The notes beneath the pieces are model-generated. The model ran no database searches and was not told the DNA's origin. It worked only from the letters and a program-made list of their open reading frames with translations. Source: Alphaproteobacteria bacterium (lineage in GTDB: Bacteria; Pseudomonadota; Alphaproteobacteria; UBA8366). Taken from it: a stretch of DNA of 64,000 nucleotides. This document shows positions 24,437-31,603 of the stretch, piece by piece (the first letter of the stretch is position 1; every line of letters begins with the position of its first letter). The stretch is taken from contig OZ245815.1 in assembly GCA_965228425.1 (NCBI GenBank), positions 1,626,185 through 1,690,184 of the forward strand, read 5' to 3'. The position numbers and the translations under genes were made by a program.

Positions 24437-25636
24437 TTAGACCGTTCCCTTCTCCCTTAGATGCGCGATTCGCGTGGCATCGTAACCGAGCTCGGCGAGC
24501 AGGTCGTCGGTGTCTTGCCCGAGTTCCGGACCCGGCCGGTTCGGCGTCGGCTCGCCCGTATCGAAAGGGCAGTCCAACACACGGAACGATGTACCGTTTT
24601 GATGGACGAGATCCTGGATCATGCCATTCTCGGTAACATAGGGGTTGTCCATCGCTTGCCGAACGTCATAGATCGGTGCGGCGGGGACCTGTCCTGCAAA
24701 ATGATCCAGCCATTCGTCGGTCGTGCGGGCCGATAGAGCCGTGTCCAGCATGTCCTGGATCAGGGCGCGATTTTCCAGGCGGTCCTTGAACTTCAGGAAT
24801 CGTGAATCCTGTCCCCACTCCGGATGGCCGATCATGTCGCACAGGATGGGCCAGAATTTCTCCTTGTTGCACATAATGAAGATCCAGCCGTCCTTGGTCT
24901 TGTACTGAGCGCAGGGCGTTAGCGACGGATGGCCCGATCGCGGTTCGCGGCCCTGGACATGGCCGGTGTTGAGATACCAAGTGGCTGGATAGGAAACATT
25001 TGTCAGCGCCAAATCGAAAAGGTTCGTGTCGACGTTTCGTCCGGTGCCGGTGGCGCGGGCGGCCAGGATGGCGGAGACCGTCGCATAAGCCATCGCCAAG
25101 CCTGTCATCAAATCGACGATCGACAGGCCGAATCGGGTGGGCGGCGTGTCCGGCTCGCCGGTCAGCGAGAAGTAACCGGCTTCCGCCTGCATCAAATAGT
25201 CGTAGCCCGGCCACTTCGCGCGCGGCCCACTTCGTCCATAGGCGGTTAGGAAGGAACAAACGATCTTCGGATTGAGTTTGCCGAGTGTCTCGAAAGTAAG
25301 GCCGAGTTTCTCCGGCACGTCGCCGCGCAGATTGCAGGTCACCGCATCGGCGGTCTTCACCAGATCCTGGAATATCGCCTGCCCGTCCGGCGACGAGAGG
25401 TCGAGCGTAAGACTCCGCTTGTTGCGGTTGATGCTTTGGAAGAACAGGCTCGCGCTGCTGTTCGTCGAATCGTCGTCGATGAAGAAGGGGCCGACCGCAC
25501 GGCCCATGTCGCCGCCGTCCTTCGGGTTCTCGATCTTGATCACCTCGGCGCCGATGTCCGCCAGATACTGGGTTCCCCAGGGACCGGCGCCGTATTGTTC
25601 GACGGCCAGCACGCGGACGCCATCTAAAGGCAACAT
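24437..25636 (-). CDS. family III CoA-transferase (CaiB/BaiF)
   Basis: LDGVRVLAVEQYGAGPWGTQYLADIGAEVIKIENP and NRNKRSLTLDL. Confidence 0.85.
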   Translation of the reverse strand: MLPLDGVRVLAVEQYGAGPWGTQYLADIGAEVIKIENPKDGGDMGRAVGPFFIDDDSTNSSASLFFQSINRNKRSLTLDLSSPDGQAIFQDLVKTADAVTCNLRGDVPEKLGLTFETLGKLNPKIVCSFLTAYGRSGPRAKWPGYDYLMQAEAGYFSLTGEPDTPPTRFGLSIVDLMTGLAMAYATVSAILAARATGTGRNVDTNLFDLALTNVSYPATWYLNTGHVQGREPRSGHPSLTPCAQYKTKDGWIFIMCNKEKFWPILCDMIGHPEWGQDSRFLKFKDRLENRALIQDMLDTALSARTTDEWLDHFAGQVPAAPIYDVRQAMDNPYVTENGMIQDLVHQNGTSFRVLDCPFDTGEPTPNRPGPELGQDTDDLLAELGYDATRIAHLREKGTV

Positions 25637-25651
25637 CGATAGGGCCTCCGC

Positions 25652-26812
25652 CTAGATTGGATTACGTTGGATCAGTTGCCGCGCGATGATGATGCGCTGC
25701 AATTCGTTGGTGCCTTCGCCGATGGTGAGCAAGGGCGCATCGCGATAGAAGCGCTCGACCGGGAACTCTTTCGAATATCCGTATCCGCCGTGCACCCGCA
25801 TGGAATCCATCGAGTTCGTGACGGCGGCTTCGGTCGCGAAGAGCTTCGCCATTCCCGCTTCCATGTCGCACCGTTCGCCCTTATCGAATGCGTGGGCGGC
25901 TTGGTGCACCAGCAGCCGGGCTGCTTCGGTGCGGGTCGCCATGTCGGCCATGTTGATCTGTATCGCCTGGTGTTCGCAGATCGGTTTGCCGAAGGTCTGC
26001 CGCTGTTGCGAGTATTTTACCGCCTCGTCGAGCGCGGCCTGCGCCACGCCAACGCCACGCGCCGCCACGTTGATCCGGCCCAATTCCAACCCGCCCATCA
26101 CATGCTTGAAACCTTGGCCTTCCTTGCCGCCGACCAGGTTCTCGTGCGGCACCTGACAGTCGTCGAAAACCAATTCGGCGGAGTCGATTCCCTTGTAACC
26201 GAGCTTTTCCAGCTTTCGCGAAACCTCGAATCCTTCCCCTTTCTCGATCAGGAACAGGCTGATGCCCTTGTGGCGCGGCTCCACATCCGGGTCGGTCTTC
26301 ACCATGACCGCAAAGCACGTGCCGTGAATTCCATTGGAAATCCACGTCTTGGTGCCATTGACTACATAGCCGTTGCCTTGCTTCGTTGCGCGCGTGCGGA
26401 TCGCTTGCAGGTCGGTGCCGCAGTTCGGTTCGGTCAAGGCGAGCCCGCCGCGAATTTCGCCGCTGGCGAATTTCGGCAGCCATTTTTGCTTCTGCTCCTC
26501 GGTGCCGGCCCGTTGCACCGCCGACGCCATGATCAGATGCGAGTTAAAAATCCCGGAAAGGGACATCCAAACCGTGGCCACGCGTTCGACGATCTTCGCG
26601 TAGGTCAGGCAGGAAAGGCCGAGCCCACCGTATTCCTCCTCGATGATGGAGCCGAACAACCCCAACTCCTTCATCTTCTCGACGATCTCCTCGGGATAGG
26701 TGTCGTTGTGTTCAAGCTCCATCGCGTAGGGCTTGACGTCGCGATCTAGGAAGCGGTCGACCGCGTCGAGAATCAAGGTTTCCTGTTCGTCCTGTTCCGA
26801 CGTTACCGTCAT
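25652..26812 (-). CDS. acyl-CoA dehydrogenase (short/branched-chain type)
   Basis: LALTEPNCGTDL, WISNG and the C-terminal IGEGTNELQRIIIAR with the catalytic Glu context. Confidence 0.9.
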   Translation of the reverse strand: MTVTSEQDEQETLILDAVDRFLDRDVKPYAMELEHNDTYPEEIVEKMKELGLFGSIIEEEYGGLGLSCLTYAKIVERVATVWMSLSGIFNSHLIMASAVQRAGTEEQKQKWLPKFASGEIRGGLALTEPNCGTDLQAIRTRATKQGNGYVVNGTKTWISNGIHGTCFAVMVKTDPDVEPRHKGISLFLIEKGEGFEVSRKLEKLGYKGIDSAELVFDDCQVPHENLVGGKEGQGFKHVMGGLELGRINVAARGVGVAQAALDEAVKYSQQRQTFGKPICEHQAIQINMADMATRTEAARLLVHQAAHAFDKGERCDMEAGMAKLFATEAAVTNSMDSMRVHGGYGYSKEFPVERFYRDAPLLTIGEGTNELQRIIIARQLIQRNPI

Positions 26813-30616: not shown

Positions 30617-30628
30617 GCTGCGCCGGGC

Positions 30629-31603
30629 CTATTCCGCGGCGGCGGCGAGGGAGGACGCGGGAACGAACCCTTTGGGCGGACCCGACTTCGCGAGGCCGCC
30701 ATTCAGCGTTTCGTCCGGCAGGTTGCGCGCGACGATTTCGCGGACCGAAACCAGCTTGTCCAAGTTCACGCCGGTTTTCATGCCCATGCCTTCCAGCATG
30801 AAGACCAGGTCATCCATCACGATGTTGCCGGTCGCCCCCGGCGCATAGGGGCAACCGCCCAAGCCGGCCAGCGACGCGTCGAAACGCCGGACACCGGTTT
30901 CGAGCGCCGCCAACGCATTCGCGATTCCGAGCCCGCGCGTATCGTGGAGATGCACGGTTAGCGGCAGGTCGTCGCCGAAGGTGCCATACATGAGCTTGAA
31001 CAGGCTCTTGACCTGCGATGGGTTGGCATAGCCGACGGTGTCGGCGATGGCCAGTTCATCCGCGCCCGCGTCCAAGAATTTCTCTGCAAGTTTGACGACA
31101 GCGTCGGGATCCACTTGGCCCTCGATGGTGCAACCCAGTGCGGTCGACAGACCGACGAACAGGCGGACGCGGCGGCCGTTTTCCTTCGCCTTCTCGTCGC
31201 GCAGCGCGACGATTTTCTTGAAGGCATCGACCGACTCGTCCGGTGTCATGCGCACGTTGGCGATGTTGTGCTTCACGCTGACCGACGTCACGTAATTCAA
31301 CTTGTGGACCCCGGCGGCGAGACCGTTCTCCGCGCCCTTCAAATTCGGCATCAGGGCAGAGATGACCAGGCCTTCGTGCTTCTCCGCGATGGGTAGCGCC
31401 GCGGCGCAAACGTCTTTCGCATCCGCGAACTGCGGCAGGAGTTTCGGCGGCACGAAGGAACAAACCTCTATTTCCGGCATGCCAGCCGCGGCCTCGGCTT
31501 CGATCCACGCGATTTTCTGATCGGTCGGAAAGAATGTCTGGACGTTCTGAAGCCCGTCCCGCAGACCCACTTCGCAGACATGAACGTCATTACCGTCGCG
31601 CAT
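30629..31603 (-). CDS. hydroxymethylglutaryl-CoA lyase-like (HMGL/DRE-TIM family)
   Basis: VCEVGLRDGLQN, HLHDTRGLGIANALAALE and GLGGCPYAPGATGN. AAGGGAG RBS before ATG 31603. Confidence 0.85.
   Translation of the reverse strand: MRDGNDVHVCEVGLRDGLQNVQTFFPTDQKIAWIEAEAAAGMPEIEVCSFVPPKLLPQFADAKDVCAAALPIAEKHEGLVISALMPNLKGAENGLAAGVHKLNYVTSVSVKHNIANVRMTPDESVDAFKKIVALRDEKAKENGRRVRLFVGLSTALGCTIEGQVDPDAVVKLAEKFLDAGADELAIADTVGYANPSQVKSLFKLMYGTFGDDLPLTVHLHDTRGLGIANALAALETGVRRFDASLAGLGGCPYAPGATGNIVMDDLVFMLEGMGMKTGVNLDKLVSVREIVARNLPDETLNGGLAKSGPPKGFVPASSLAAAAE

Follow-up and report, generated by a model that had tools for sequence, protein, structure and literature searches.

A mosaic seven-gene operon from an uncultured alphaproteobacterium, probably for the catabolism of branched short-chain dicarboxylates

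We have analyzed a group of seven genes within a 64-kb stretch of DNA (the window) from an uncultured soil or water alphaproteobacterium. The genes are tightly packed on the minus strand at positions 24437-31603 and are transcribed in the order HMGL-like lyase, ACAD_A, ACAD_B, CitE-like lyase, MaoC hydratase, ACAD_C and family-III CoA-transferase, with spacers of 12, 19, 31, 13, 6 and 15 nt (Table 1). An earlier sequence-only reading had listed seven minus-strand genes in this order. Our gene calls agree, and an independent gene caller gave the identical seven genes on the source contig (ENA ERZ25074583, ctg7472). Pfam places every gene in the family assigned to it then. The spacing had been given as 6-32 nt; the packing is indeed tight, with a measured range of 6-31 nt. 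An open reading frame at 28196-29338 was rejected as ACAD_B, being in the wrong frame and without a Pfam match; the true gene lies in the other frame.

Table 1. Positions of the operon genes, the upstream elements and neighboring genes in the window
Feature	Position	Strand	Length	Remarks
HMGL-like lyase	30629-31603	-	324 aa	
ACAD_A	29429-30616	-	395 aa	
ACAD_B	28222-29409	-	395 aa	
CitE-like lyase	27348-28190	-	280 aa	
MaoC hydratase	26819-27334	-	171 aa	
ACAD_C	25652-26812	-	386 aa	
Family-III CoA-transferase	24437-25636	-	399 aa	
Putative promoter and operator	31675-31731	-		Conserved across loci upstream of HMGL
-35-like TTGACT	31726-31731			
Palindrome TTGGTCCGGACAA	31675-31687			
Metallo-beta-lactamase-fold hydrolase (MBL)	31768-32571	-		Pfam
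TauD-family dioxygenase	32568-33431	-		Pfam
MmgE/PrpD-family protein	15724-17211	-		Pfam; conserved operon neighbor

The seven-gene order recurs in five related metagenomic lineages (L007-L009 of the same genus, L092 and L093/94, in our numbering of loci). Because it has been kept across lineages despite dS values of 0.5-2.4 between the conserved copies, the arrangement is not due to chance. All seven genes are under purifying selection, with dN/dS = 0.004-0.11 in close comparisons (0.014-0.031 for ACAD_B). The MaoC gene is the most conserved (98-99% within the genus, dN/dS 0.004-0.019) and the CitE gene the least, at 86-87% where the others are at 92-99%, and 67% where the others are at 78-90%. 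CitE evolves fastest, with dN/dS = 0.08-0.11 in close comparisons, still purifying, and up to 0.20 in distant ones. The gene is absent from the sister lineages L002 and L006; it is thus dispensable, and has been lost there.

We aligned the 220 nt upstream of HMGL from eight related loci. The sequence TTGACTC is invariant in all eight, the palindrome core GTCCGGAC is present in seven, and L092, L093 and L002 carry the perfect palindrome TTGTCCGGACAA. There is one strong copy of the palindrome in the 64-kb window, and its combination with TTGACT is found only upstream of HMGL. We infer that these elements form the putative promoter and operator of the operon. A generic promoter scan found nothing above chance.

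What chemistry might the operon perform? The MaoC hydratase matches the Pfam families MC_hydratase and MaoC, and is a single-hot-dog protein of the RipB/Rv2499c type. Its top NCBIfam model is RipB_Ich (240 bits, below the cut-off of 340), and the best structural matches are to the N-terminal halves of mesaconyl/beta-methylmalyl-CoA hydratases (8hgn and 4e3e). The CitE-like lyase belongs to the Pfam family HpcH_HpaI, with RipC_Ccl as its top NCBIfam model (221.9 bits, below the cut-off of 375). Yersinia pestis RipC is its best match among solved structures (3qll, 144 bits), followed by malyl-CoA lyase (84), the PA0883-like structure 8khl (83), CLYBL (77) and Rv2498c (59). DLED, R68, E126 and D153 are invariant in the CitE family alignment. 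The JGI names of MaoC and CitE homologues of 65-88% identity agree with RipB/Ich and RipC/Ccl, MaoC homologues of 84-88% being labeled 'itaconyl-CoA hydratase'. We propose that the MaoC protein is an itaconyl-CoA isomerase/mesaconyl-C4-CoA hydratase (Ich), an (R)-hydratase, and that the CitE-like enzyme is a Ccl-like (S)-citramalyl-CoA lyase. The closest CitE relatives outside the operon adjoin genes for TauD-family dioxygenases without CoA-ester genes nearby, and the substrate of this enzyme may therefore differ.

The CoA-transferase belongs to family III (CaiB/BaiF; Pfam CoA_transf_3, 375 bits). Its top NCBIfam models are succinate-glutarate CoA-transferase (268 bits) and succinyl-CoA:mesaconate CoA-transferase (228 bits), neither of which comes near its cut-off, and its structural matches are 10uh (220 bits), 4ed9 (202 bits) and the human succinate-hydroxymethylglutarate CoA-transferase 9br7 (189 bits). 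We propose an Ict-like succinyl-CoA:dicarboxylate CoA-transferase.

The NCBIfam matches to the mesaconate transferase and to malyl-CoA lyase, together with the MC_hydratase domain and a mesaconyl-CoA C1-C4 transferase-like gene that is a conserved neighbor 14 kb away, could be taken to indicate not a catabolic operon but an assimilatory cycle running via mesaconyl-CoA, i.e., the ethylmalonyl-CoA pathway, the methylaspartate cycle or the 3-hydroxypropionate bi-cycle. We regard this as very improbable. The NCBIfam scores concerned are all far below cut-off, Mch is twice as large as the hydratase, and the window contains no crotonyl-CoA carboxylase/reductase, mutases or glutamate mutase/methylaspartase; such a cycle has no role for three ACADs and an HMGL.

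The two dehydrogenases ACAD_A (four ACAD Pfam domains) and ACAD_B (assigned by Pfam) are 75% identical to each other. Both resemble PA0879 of Pseudomonas aeruginosa, the characterised (RS)-methylsuccinyl-C4-CoA dehydrogenase (PMC12290011). Against a PA0879 reference taken from noisy PDF text, in which about 360 of 379 codons were readable, ACAD_A is 58.3% identical (210/360 readable codons) and ACAD_B 59.0% (207/351), compared with 34.5% for ACAD_C as a control by the same method. ACAD_A, ACAD_B and PA0879 have an unusual catalytic-base layout in common, with the NAER glutamate present and the canonical C-terminal YEGT glutamate missing. The C-terminal motif is NAPVAPN in ACAD_A and, as in PA0879, APISTN in ACAD_B. 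ACAD_A clusters with the ACADs encoded after HMGL in L089 and L003, and the single PA0879-type copy kept in L006 falls in the ACAD_B clade. By sequence, ACAD_A and ACAD_B are thus paralogues within the methylsuccinyl-C4-CoA dehydrogenase family, at a level of identity to PA0879 that is no guarantee of equal specificity.

ACAD_C, also an acyl-CoA dehydrogenase by Pfam, belongs to a different ACAD family, with the canonical GEGT catalytic glutamate and only 34% identity to either of the other two. Its best structural match is Mycobacterium smegmatis FadE3 (4iv6, 462 bits). We propose that it is a second branched dicarboxylyl-CoA dehydrogenase.

The operon may be compared with three known systems. 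The Pseudomonas/Cupriavidus cluster (PA0878-PA0883; C. necator E6A55_22580-22600) encodes Ich, Mcd, Msi, Ict and Ccl (Sasikaran 2014; de Witt 2023, PMC9875883; Gonner 2025, PMC12290011). Like the operon, it has a CoA-transferase of family III, a lyase of the CitE type and, most notably, the PA0879-type dehydrogenase (in two copies in the operon), and it follows the same logic of CoA transfer, dehydrogenation, hydration and C-C cleavage. Its hydratase, however, is of the double-hot-dog PA0878 type (PMC11789021), its lyase is only distantly related to ours, as judged by the PA0883-like structure, and the operon lacks an orthologue of its methylsuccinate isomerase while adding an HMG-CoA-lyase-family enzyme, a second Mcd-type copy and an unrelated third ACAD. 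The Yersinia pestis RipABC system (Ict/Ich/Ccl, itaconate degradation) has the closest hydratase and lyase, albeit at sub-equivalog scores, but its transferase RipA is of the acetyl-CoA hydrolase/transferase type, and it has neither ACADs nor an HMGL. Finally, Mycobacterium tuberculosis Rv2498c-Rv2500c (CitE, MaoC and FadE19, bifunctional for itaconate and (R)-specific leucine catabolism) shares the adjoining CitE, single-hot-dog MaoC and ACAD genes, and Rv2499c falls in the same Ich subgroup as RipB (PMC11789021). Here the transcript order is reversed, MCCase and ScoAB are not adjacent, activation would be by a family-III transferase, and among the structural matches of the CitE-like lyase Rv2498c comes last.

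These comparisons lend partial support to the sequence-only reading. Its itaconate/citramalyl chemistry is upheld by the RipB/Ich and RipC/Ccl models and the RipC structure, and the link it drew to the ACAD of the Pseudomonas cluster by the identity of ACAD_A and ACAD_B to PA0879. Its transferase-hydratase-lyase triad does not belong to either characterised set, the hydratase being of the Yersinia/Rv2499c kind, the transferase of the Pseudomonas kind, and the RipB and RipC scores below cut-off. The analogy it saw with Rv2498c-Rv2500c also proves weak. A leucine/isovalerate locus like Rv2498c-Rv2504c or the liu cluster would account for the CitE-MaoC-ACAD adjacency and the HMG-CoA-lyase-family gene, and yet is close to refuted. 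Subunits of methylcrotonyl-CoA carboxylase are encoded nowhere in the 64 kb, and no ACAD is near isovaleryl-CoA dehydrogenase: ACAD_A scores about 142 bits against such structures, below many generic ACADs, ACAD_C 262-272 bits, far under its best, and ACAD_A and ACAD_B instead approach methylsuccinyl-CoA dehydrogenase. Activation by CoA transfer points to free dicarboxylates rather than to branched-chain 2-oxo acids.

The HMGL-like lyase (Pfam HMGL-like, 167 bits) passes the cut-off of the HMG-CoA lyase subfamily PRK05692 (279.7 bits, cut-off 246), and its best solved structures are 6nds, 1ydo and the human enzyme 2cw6. Its motifs RDGLQN, IEVCSFV, HLHDT and GLGGCPYAPGATGN match human R41/D42, E72, H233/H235 and C266/N275, so every catalytic residue of HMG-CoA lyase is retained. 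We propose that it cleaves (R)-citramalyl-CoA and/or (S)-HMG-CoA. A route for C6 acids (3-methylglutarate, 3-hydroxy-3-methylglutarate and glutarate-type acids), beside or instead of the C5 route, has then to be considered. The transferase would form 3-methylglutaryl-CoA or HMG-CoA, an ACAD such as ACAD_C would give 3-methylglutaconyl-CoA, MaoC would hydrate this to (R)-HMG-CoA like Rv2499c for cleavage by CitE like Rv2498c, and HMGL would split (S)-HMG-CoA into acetoacetate and acetyl-CoA. The resemblance of the transferase to the succinate-glutarate and succinate-hydroxymethylglutarate enzymes fits this, ACAD_C could have such a substrate, and M. tuberculosis CitE/MaoC pairs are reported to be bifunctional for citramalyl-CoA and (R)-HMG-CoA (PMC6689899; PMC11789021). 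However, PA0879, the nearest enzyme to ACAD_A and ACAD_B, works on C5 compounds, Rv2498c gives the lowest of the structural scores for CitE, the MmgE/PrpD proteins that recur as partners have 2-substituted succinates as substrates (PMC12290011), and no acetoacetate-handling genes adjoin the operon in the window. We therefore consider the C6 route unlikely.

Comparative genomics suggests where the parts came from. One cluster type (type a) is GntR-linked, with the content MaoC-CaiB-MmgE/PrpD-ACAD_C-CitE; it is found on p3 of Azospirillum brasilense Sp7, in Rhodococcus rhodochrous and in Pseudosulfitobacter, and its gene content also in betaproteobacterial MAGs. ACAD_C homologues of 53-77% identity occur in clusters with this content, also in marine alphaproteobacteria. 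The Azospirillum proteins are 68% (MaoC), 72% (ACAD_C) and 58% (CaiB transferase) identical to ours. The second (type b) is IclR- or GntR-linked, with the content crotonase-CaiB-PA0879-type ACAD-MmgE/PrpD-(ETF)-HMGL, and occurs in Paraburkholderia terrae (pPT365), Pontibrevibacter, Pseudorhizobium flavum and a Rhodospirillales MAG. On these four unrelated replicons (L003, L089, L091 and L097) PA0879-type ACADs stand together with HMG-CoA-lyase, crotonase and family-III transferase genes; MmgE/PrpD is usually there too, and in one case ETF and ETF-QO. This suggests that a crotonase and an HMGL together can take the place of Ich/Ccl after a PA0879-type dehydrogenase. Type b HMGLs are 47-54% identical to ours, and the ACADs, in two comparisons, 61-72% and 64-77% identical to ACAD_A or ACAD_B. 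Among HMGLs beside PA0879-type ACADs the values are 54% (L089), 53% (L003) and 58% (L021), with 47-48% for the two L091 copies; the annotated HMG-CoA lyase of L097 was left out of this comparison. No experimental work on either cluster type was found in the literature searched.

The operon thus looks like a fusion, with MaoC, ACAD_C and CaiB from type a and HMGL, ACAD_A and ACAD_B from type b, that lacks the MmgE/PrpD and regulator of the former and the crotonase, transferase and ETF genes of the latter. Marine alphaproteobacteria (L021 and L024) carry HMGL, PA0879-type ACAD, CitE, MaoC, ACAD_C and CaiB genes in a different order, a combination that arose independently there. Could these be two or three unrelated pathways lying side by side (HMGL with ACAD_A and ACAD_B; CitE; MaoC with ACAD_C and CaiB), with no common substrate? 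The modules do have different partners elsewhere, and CitE has been gained or lost independently. We nevertheless think this improbable: the genes are 6-31 nt apart behind one conserved promoter/operator region, the combination recurs in L021 and L024, and all parts map to one chemistry, PA0879-type ACADs occurring with either lyase type. Moreover, the HMGL+ACAD module includes neither a CoA-transferase nor a hydratase, and must therefore depend on the downstream genes.

We favor, with some reservation, the view that the seven genes make up one catabolic operon with a promoter of its own, which handles branched short-chain dicarboxylates as CoA thioesters and was assembled from parts of itaconate and methylsuccinate pathways; the likeliest substrates are itaconate, (R/S)-methylsuccinate, mesaconate and citramalate. 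The neighboring C1-C4 transferase-like gene counts in favor of this view. Against it count the sub-cut-off scores of the RipB, RipC and all transferase equivalogs, and the lack of a dedicated regulator or dicarboxylate transporter within the operon. Every step is proposed from homology. Free acids would be activated by the transferase with succinyl-CoA as donor, and ACAD_A and ACAD_B would oxidize methylsuccinyl-C4-CoA to mesaconyl-C4-CoA, passing electrons to ETF. MaoC would isomerize itaconyl-CoA and hydrate mesaconyl-C4-CoA to (S)-citramalyl-CoA, which CitE would cleave into acetyl-CoA and pyruvate. ACAD_C, of the parallel uncharacterised type a origin, probably serves for an isomer (regio-, stereo- or chain-length) that the PA0879-type enzymes refuse.

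For HMGL we propose as substrate (R)-citramalyl-CoA, the other enantiomer, or (S)-HMG-CoA; the two lyases probably divide the enantiomers of citramalyl-CoA, or of HMG-CoA, between them. In lineages without CitE, HMGL would be the sole lyase of the operon; its pairing with the MaoC hydratase in L002 and L006 fits poorly with a simple stereochemical scheme. The whole 64-kb window lacks a crotonase gene, which counts against the scheme: the (R)-citramalyl-CoA or (S)-HMG-CoA would have to come from CoA transfer to (R)-citramalate or from a crotonase encoded elsewhere. The precedent for such a role is the (R)-citramalyl-CoA lyase that Chloroflexus aurantiacus reportedly has together with a succinyl-CoA:D-citramalate CoA-transferase (Friedmann, Alber and Fuchs 2007); these two enzymes belong to an autotrophic cycle and are not known to be linked to ACADs.

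The sequence-only reading had held that two lyases and three ACADs exceed the needs of either known pathway and point to a broader or branched route. The broader route fits the mosaic make-up. The excess is real only in part, given that CitE is dispensable and a single known enzyme type accounts for both paralogues, ACAD_A and ACAD_B. The operon is an unusual mix of known-pathway parts with a spare lyase and spare dehydrogenases, and no new kind of system. Three dehydrogenases, plus a pair of lyases with opposite stereochemistry, could let the cell use several isomers without the methylsuccinate isomerase of the Pseudomonas cluster.

The MmgE/PrpD protein of the window was rejected as a clear orthologue of that isomerase, being only about 35% identical to PA0881 in a frameshift-tolerant alignment, and 29% identical to the Azospirillum in-cluster protein. 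In L006, L092 and L093 the operon has a homologue of this protein (73-77% identity) at a distance of 3-8 kb. Upstream of the operon, on the same strand, lies the TauD/MBL pair, with 164 nt between it and HMGL; the conserved promoter/operator is in this gap. L002, L006, L008, L009 and L093 carry MBL, L007 and L092 do not, and the TauD copy of the window is shared only by L008 and L009. The pair is probably a separate, optional accessory unit.

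Each of the seven minus-strand genes at 24437-31603 that the sequence-only reading had grouped as one set is confirmed in its family by Pfam, and all three acyl-CoA dehydrogenases (ACAD_A, ACAD_B and ACAD_C) contain N, M and C domains. The spacers in transcription order are 12, 19, 31, 13, 6 and 15 nt. The same genes were called by an independent gene caller on an 84-kb ENA metagenome contig that includes sequence identical to the window. An ORF at 28196-29338 in the mechanical list was rejected as ACAD_B; it has no family match, and the true gene lies in another frame.

Features of the operon and of its neighbourhood in the window
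Feature	Coordinates	Strand	Remarks
TPR-repeat proteins	4824-9271 and 39917-42484		several, large
Carbamoyltransferase	6014-7753		
TPR-repeat protein	7772-9271		C-terminal 2OG-Fe(II) oxygenase domain; adjoins carbamoyltransferase
Second family-III CoA-transferase	9291-10517	+	
D-glutamate-cyclase-like protein, DUF2333, MmgE/PrpD	13614-17211	-	consecutive
MmgE/PrpD	15724-17211	-	nearest to operon
Three TauD-family dioxygenases, two Zn-dependent dehydrogenases, TylF-type O-methyltransferase	17277-22104 and 32568-33431		
EgtD-like gene	23445-24419	+	
Family-III CoA-transferase (CaiB)	24437-25636	-	operon gene 7; Pfam CoA_transf_3
ACAD_C	25652-26812	-	operon gene 6; Pfam family
MaoC hydratase	26819-27334	-	operon gene 5; Pfam family
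CitE-like lyase	27348-28190	-	operon gene 4; Pfam family
ACAD_B	28222-29409	-	operon gene 3; Pfam family
ACAD_A	29429-30616	-	operon gene 2; Pfam family
HMG-CoA-lyase-like gene (HMGL)	30629-31603	-	operon gene 1 in transcription order; Pfam family
LeuC/LeuD pair	35568-37596	+	beside EamA transporters
MFS transporter + acyltransferase + AMP-binding fusion	52930-56385	-	1151 aa; Aas-like lysophospholipid recycling architecture

The closest genomes are MAGs named 'Alphaproteobacteria bacterium', among them a closed 5.69-Mb chromosome (OZ245851.1). The order of the seven genes is identical in L007-L009, three MAGs of the same genus, and in the two lineages L092 and L093/94, which are more distant. 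For the operon genes dS is 0.5-0.9 inside the genus and 0.9-2.4 against the distant lineages, with dN/dS = 0.004-0.11 in close comparisons and no greater than 0.20 in distant ones, the maximum being that of CitE. The seven genes are a real unit.

In the 164-nt gap upstream of HMGL, TTGACTC is invariant and is followed some 35 nt further downstream by a palindrome, TTGGTCCGGACAA in the window and perfect (TTGTCCGGACAA) in three relatives, that is kept in seven of eight loci in an alignment of the upstream regions. These elements are the putative promoter and repressor site of the operon itself, the candidate repressor being of GntR/FadR type. No second convincing copy of the palindrome was found across the window, and hence no regulon could be drawn. 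A generic promoter and terminator scan gave results at chance level only, and Rfam gave no matches in 22000-35000. The upstream TauD-MBL gene pair is variable, with both genes missing from L007 and L092 and TauD missing from L093 and from the sister lineages L002 and L006; it is probably a separate unit.

ACAD_A and ACAD_B are 75% identical to one another, and each is 34% identical to ACAD_C. In neither is there the canonical C-terminal catalytic glutamate (YEGT); instead a glutamate is found in an NAER motif, placed as in IVD/LCAD and in PA0879 of the Pseudomonas aeruginosa itaconate/methylsuccinate cluster (PA0878-PA0883). Isovaleryl- and long-chain acyl-CoA dehydrogenases have theirs at this position. 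PA0879 is a (RS)-methylsuccinyl-C4-CoA dehydrogenase for which a synthetic gene is printed in a supplement (Gonner et al., 2025; PMC12290011). The PA0879 sequence was taken from the text of the supplement PDF, which has dropped letters, and was aligned by frameshift-tolerant dynamic programming of protein to DNA; this superseded plain tblastn, which gave meaningless HSPs of ~30% because of the dropped letters. ACAD_A is 58.3% identical to PA0879 (210/360 readable codons) and ACAD_B 59.0% (207/351). The control, ACAD_C aligned by the identical method, gave 34.5%, which is its BLASTP identity to ACAD_A, and therefore the alignment method is not inflating identity. ACAD_A and ACAD_B have the NAER and APISTN...LPR features in common with PA0879. 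This identity and the common features place ACAD_A and ACAD_B in the PA0879 family, bearing out the dehydrogenase part of the parallel with PA0878-PA0883 that had been drawn earlier.

In a neighbor-joining tree the two genes fall into different clades. ACAD_A groups with the HMGL-following dehydrogenases of Pseudorhizobium and a Rhodospirillales MAG, and ACAD_B with the single copy of L006. Since these separate clades hold single-copy genes of other lineages, a recent tandem duplication of the pair was rejected, on a tree with short internal branches.

HMGL scores 167 bits against its Pfam family and 279.7 bits against NCBIfam PRK05692 (the HMG-CoA-lyase subfamily), passing the cut-off of 246, and aligns with all the catalytic residues of the human enzyme (R41, D42, E72, H233, H235, C266 and N275). 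Does it then act in leucine catabolism? The sequence is compatible with (S)-HMG-CoA, with (R)-citramalyl-CoA and with another 3-hydroxy-3-alkyl-acyl-CoA as its substrate. The context argues against the leucine role, because the scanned ORFs of the 64-kb window include neither a biotin carboxylase nor a carboxyltransferase, and because HMGL is linked to PA0879-type dehydrogenases and dicarboxylate CoA-transferases.

Elsewhere, PA0879-type dehydrogenases (61-72% identical to ACAD_A or ACAD_B) are found with an HMG-CoA lyase, a crotonase, a family-III transferase and usually an MmgE/PrpD protein. The set of dehydrogenase, HMGL, crotonase and transferase occurs on four unrelated replicons: a Rhodospirillales MAG (L003), Pseudorhizobium flavum plasmid 2 (L089), Paraburkholderia terrae KU-64 pPT365 (L091, PTKU64_RS45535-45570), where EtfBA and ETF-QO are added, and, with a TRAP dicarboxylate transporter, a plasmid of Pontibrevibacter (L097). 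In Sinorhizobium RAC02 a PA0879-type dehydrogenase is accompanied by the classical double-hot-dog hydratase and CitE. The simplest reading is that crotonase and HMGL may replace Ich and Ccl downstream of a PA0879-type dehydrogenase, and the four clusters are candidates for a third enzyme set for methylsuccinate-type degradation. To our knowledge only two enzyme sets have been characterised for itaconate/methylsuccinate breakdown, and a literature search for a characterised cluster of MmgE/PrpD, HMGL, CaiB and ACAD returned nothing relevant.

ACAD_C has the canonical GEGT catalytic glutamate, and its best solved relative is M. smegmatis FadE3 (462 bits). A dehydrogenase 72% identical to ACAD_C is located on plasmid p3 of Azospirillum brasilense Sp7 (L087, AMK58_RS27755-27775), in the arrangement CitE<- MaoC-MmgE/PrpD-ACAD-CaiB-GntR. 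The MaoC and CaiB proteins are 68% and 58% identical to those of the window, but CitE just 39%. These five families are also found together in Pseudosulfitobacter, Rhodococcus rhodochrous, betaproteobacterial MAGs, Vineibacter and marine alphaproteobacteria. The GntR-linked set of MaoC, CaiB, MmgE/PrpD, ACAD and CitE is present in L087, L096 (the R. rhodochrous BX2 plasmid) and L088 (Pseudosulfitobacter pSMR1-4); the dehydrogenase of this set, an ACAD_C-type protein, has about 36% identity to PA0879, and the MmgE/PrpD only about 40% to PA0881. Orthology to PA0881 is not claimed, as every MmgE/PrpD protein compared by frameshift-tolerant alignment gave just 35-41%. The Azospirillum-type cluster is a five-gene parallel of the Pseudomonas cluster, differing in its dehydrogenase and in having a single-hot-dog hydratase. 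A literature search found no experimental work on it, and it is apparently an uncharacterised counterpart of the itaconate/methylsuccinate cluster.

The operon MaoC, the most conserved of the seven genes, encodes 171 aa with one MaoC domain. Its top NCBIfam model is RipB/Ich, at 240.1 bits, which is below the curated cut-off of 340. Ich proteins form two subgroups, RipB/Rv2499c with a single hot dog and PA0878/Rv3389c with a double hot dog (PMC11789021), and the operon protein is of the RipB/Rv2499c kind. For CitE the top model is RipC/Ccl, at 221.9 bits, again below the curated cut-off, here 375. Its catalytic residues are conserved, and against solved structures it scores 144 bits with RipC, 84 with malyl-CoA lyase, 83 with the PA0883-like 8khl, 77 with CLYBL and 59 with Rv2498c.

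How closely does the operon resemble the known systems? The PA0879-type dehydrogenase of the Pseudomonas cluster is shared, as judged from the sequences of ACAD_A and ACAD_B. The families to which its itaconate CoA-transferase (family III) and its (S)-citramalyl-CoA lyase (CitE-type) belong are represented in the operon. The double-hot-dog itaconyl-CoA hydratase of the PA0878/Rv3389c type is absent, its place being taken by the single-domain protein, and the methylsuccinate isomerase (MmgE/PrpD) that adjoins the Pseudomonas dehydrogenase has no counterpart in the operon; the nearest MmgE/PrpD gene is 7 kb off, and about 35% identical to PA0881. In the case of Yersinia RipABC, the RipB and RipC equivalogs (NF038241 and NF038242) are the top-scoring models for MaoC and CitE, both at scores under the curated cut-offs; the RipA itaconate CoA-transferase belongs to the acetyl-CoA hydrolase/transferase family and the sole operon transferase to family III. 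The likeness to itaconate degradation proposed earlier survives in the PA0879-type dehydrogenases and in the RipB and RipC models, but not in the hydratase type, nor at the level of the curated cut-offs. The other likeness proposed, to M. tuberculosis Rv2498c-Rv2500c, extends to the adjacency of CitE, MaoC and ACAD found in Rv2498c-2504c. There, however, methylcrotonyl-CoA carboxylase (AccA1/AccD1) adjoins, no carboxylase was found among the scanned ORFs here, and Rv2498c is the weakest structural match of the operon CitE. A leucine-type reading of the operon is unlikely.

CitE is the most divergent component. Its identity is 86-87% in comparisons that give 92-99% for the neighbouring genes, and 67% in those that give 78-90%; its dN/dS is 3-5 times that of the other operon genes. 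In L002 and L006 it has gone without remnant, leaving HMGL as the sole lyase in the operon. Genomes were scanned for CitE with a profile from an 8-sequence alignment, an 18-sequence version being too diverse. Its nearest relatives outside the clade (50-54%) lie beside TauD-family genes, not CoA-ester genes. The CitE-TauD pairing recurs in MAG loci L010-L020, L022, L023, L025 and L026, some with two TauD genes; around these loci there is no hydratase or ACAD, and mostly no CoA-transferase.

The conclusion that emerges is that the operon is best read as a mosaic, in which HMGL and the PA0879-type dehydrogenases of the crotonase/HMGL type of cluster are joined to the (CitE)-MaoC-ACAD_C-CaiB series of the Azospirillum type. 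In the marine alphaproteobacteria L021 and L024 the combination recurs in a different order (PhyH-HMGL-ACAD-CitE'-MmgE/PrpD-MaoC-CitE-ACAD_C-CaiB-GntR), which favours a functional link over accidental adjacency. We conclude that the operon would degrade branched C5 dicarboxylates via their CoA esters, with the redundancy of dehydrogenases and lyases probably widening the range of isomers. C6 substrates (3-methylglutarate and HMG) are possible, as additional or alternative substrates; an assimilatory-cycle reading is unlikely.

Why should there be two lyases? By established stereochemistry (S)-HMG-CoA is the spatial counterpart of (R)-citramalyl-CoA. Rv2498c acts on (S)-citramalyl-CoA and on (R)-HMG-CoA, and the HMGL family includes the (R)-citramalyl-CoA lyase of Chloroflexus. 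HMGL might then take the enantiomer that CitE does not handle. This step is weakened because the 64-kb window contains no crotonase, and because L002 and L006 pair the MaoC hydratase with HMGL alone. We advance only tentatively, and with more doubt than confidence, the fuller proposal that HMGL is a citramalyl-CoA lyase stereochemically opposite to CitE, that the widespread crotonase/HMGL clusters are an unrecognised third, mirror-image pathway for itaconate/methylsuccinate, and that the operon, having both lyases and three dehydrogenases, consumes the branched C5 dicarboxylates in every stereo- and regio-isomer with no isomerase.

Neither the chemistry nor any of the families is new, the PA0879 link explains most of the operon, and current understanding is not overturned. 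The novelty lies in the gene combination and in the two parent types of cluster, both uncharacterised. Itaconate serves as an antimicrobial of the immune system and of fungi; its reduction yields methylsuccinate, which is abundant in the environment. In the operon and its two parent cluster types, one chemistry would be built from non-orthologous parts that can be interchanged, across many Alphaproteobacteria, Betaproteobacteria, Actinobacteria and Deinococcus. The operon and these clusters supply candidates for a citramalyl-CoA lyase of HMGL type, for a second dehydrogenase family acting on branched dicarboxylyl-CoA esters (ACAD_C) and for new MmgE/PrpD activities. They could be of use in pathway annotation, where 'acyl-CoA dehydrogenase family protein' and 'HMG-CoA lyase' are the present labels of such genes, and in engineering the production or upcycling of C5 dicarboxylates.

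Elsewhere in the window, the top NCBIfam model of the second family-III CoA-transferase is 2-methylfumaryl(mesaconyl)-CoA C1-C4 isomerase (492 bits, cut-off 725). One homologue (76%) is a conserved neighbour in L093/94, and another (42%) is the last gene of the ECH-HMGL-ACAD cluster in Pseudorhizobium flavum; the gene fits a mesaconyl-CoA theme across the whole neighbourhood. The EgtD-like gene passes the equivalog cut-off for EgtD (L-histidine N-alpha-methyltransferase; 413 against 291), and no EgtB was found in the window. It is convergent with the operon CoA-transferase, their stop codons lying 17 nt apart, and is kept at the same spot in all relatives (68-86%). The pair of LeuC and LeuD, syntenic in all close relatives, was considered as a hydratase of citraconate or (R)-citramalate and rejected; its scores are above the cut-offs for housekeeping leuC and leuD, and it is treated as probably unrelated to the operon. 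Most of the TauD, Zn-dehydrogenase and TylF genes sit between an MFS transporter and the MmgE/PrpD gene, and in the relatives the counterpart of this stretch is much reduced in length: L092 and L093 have a single TauD gene there, and L002 and L006 have ADH, PhyH and TauD genes. In L006, L092 and L093 the MmgE/PrpD-DUF2333 pair is kept beside the operon.
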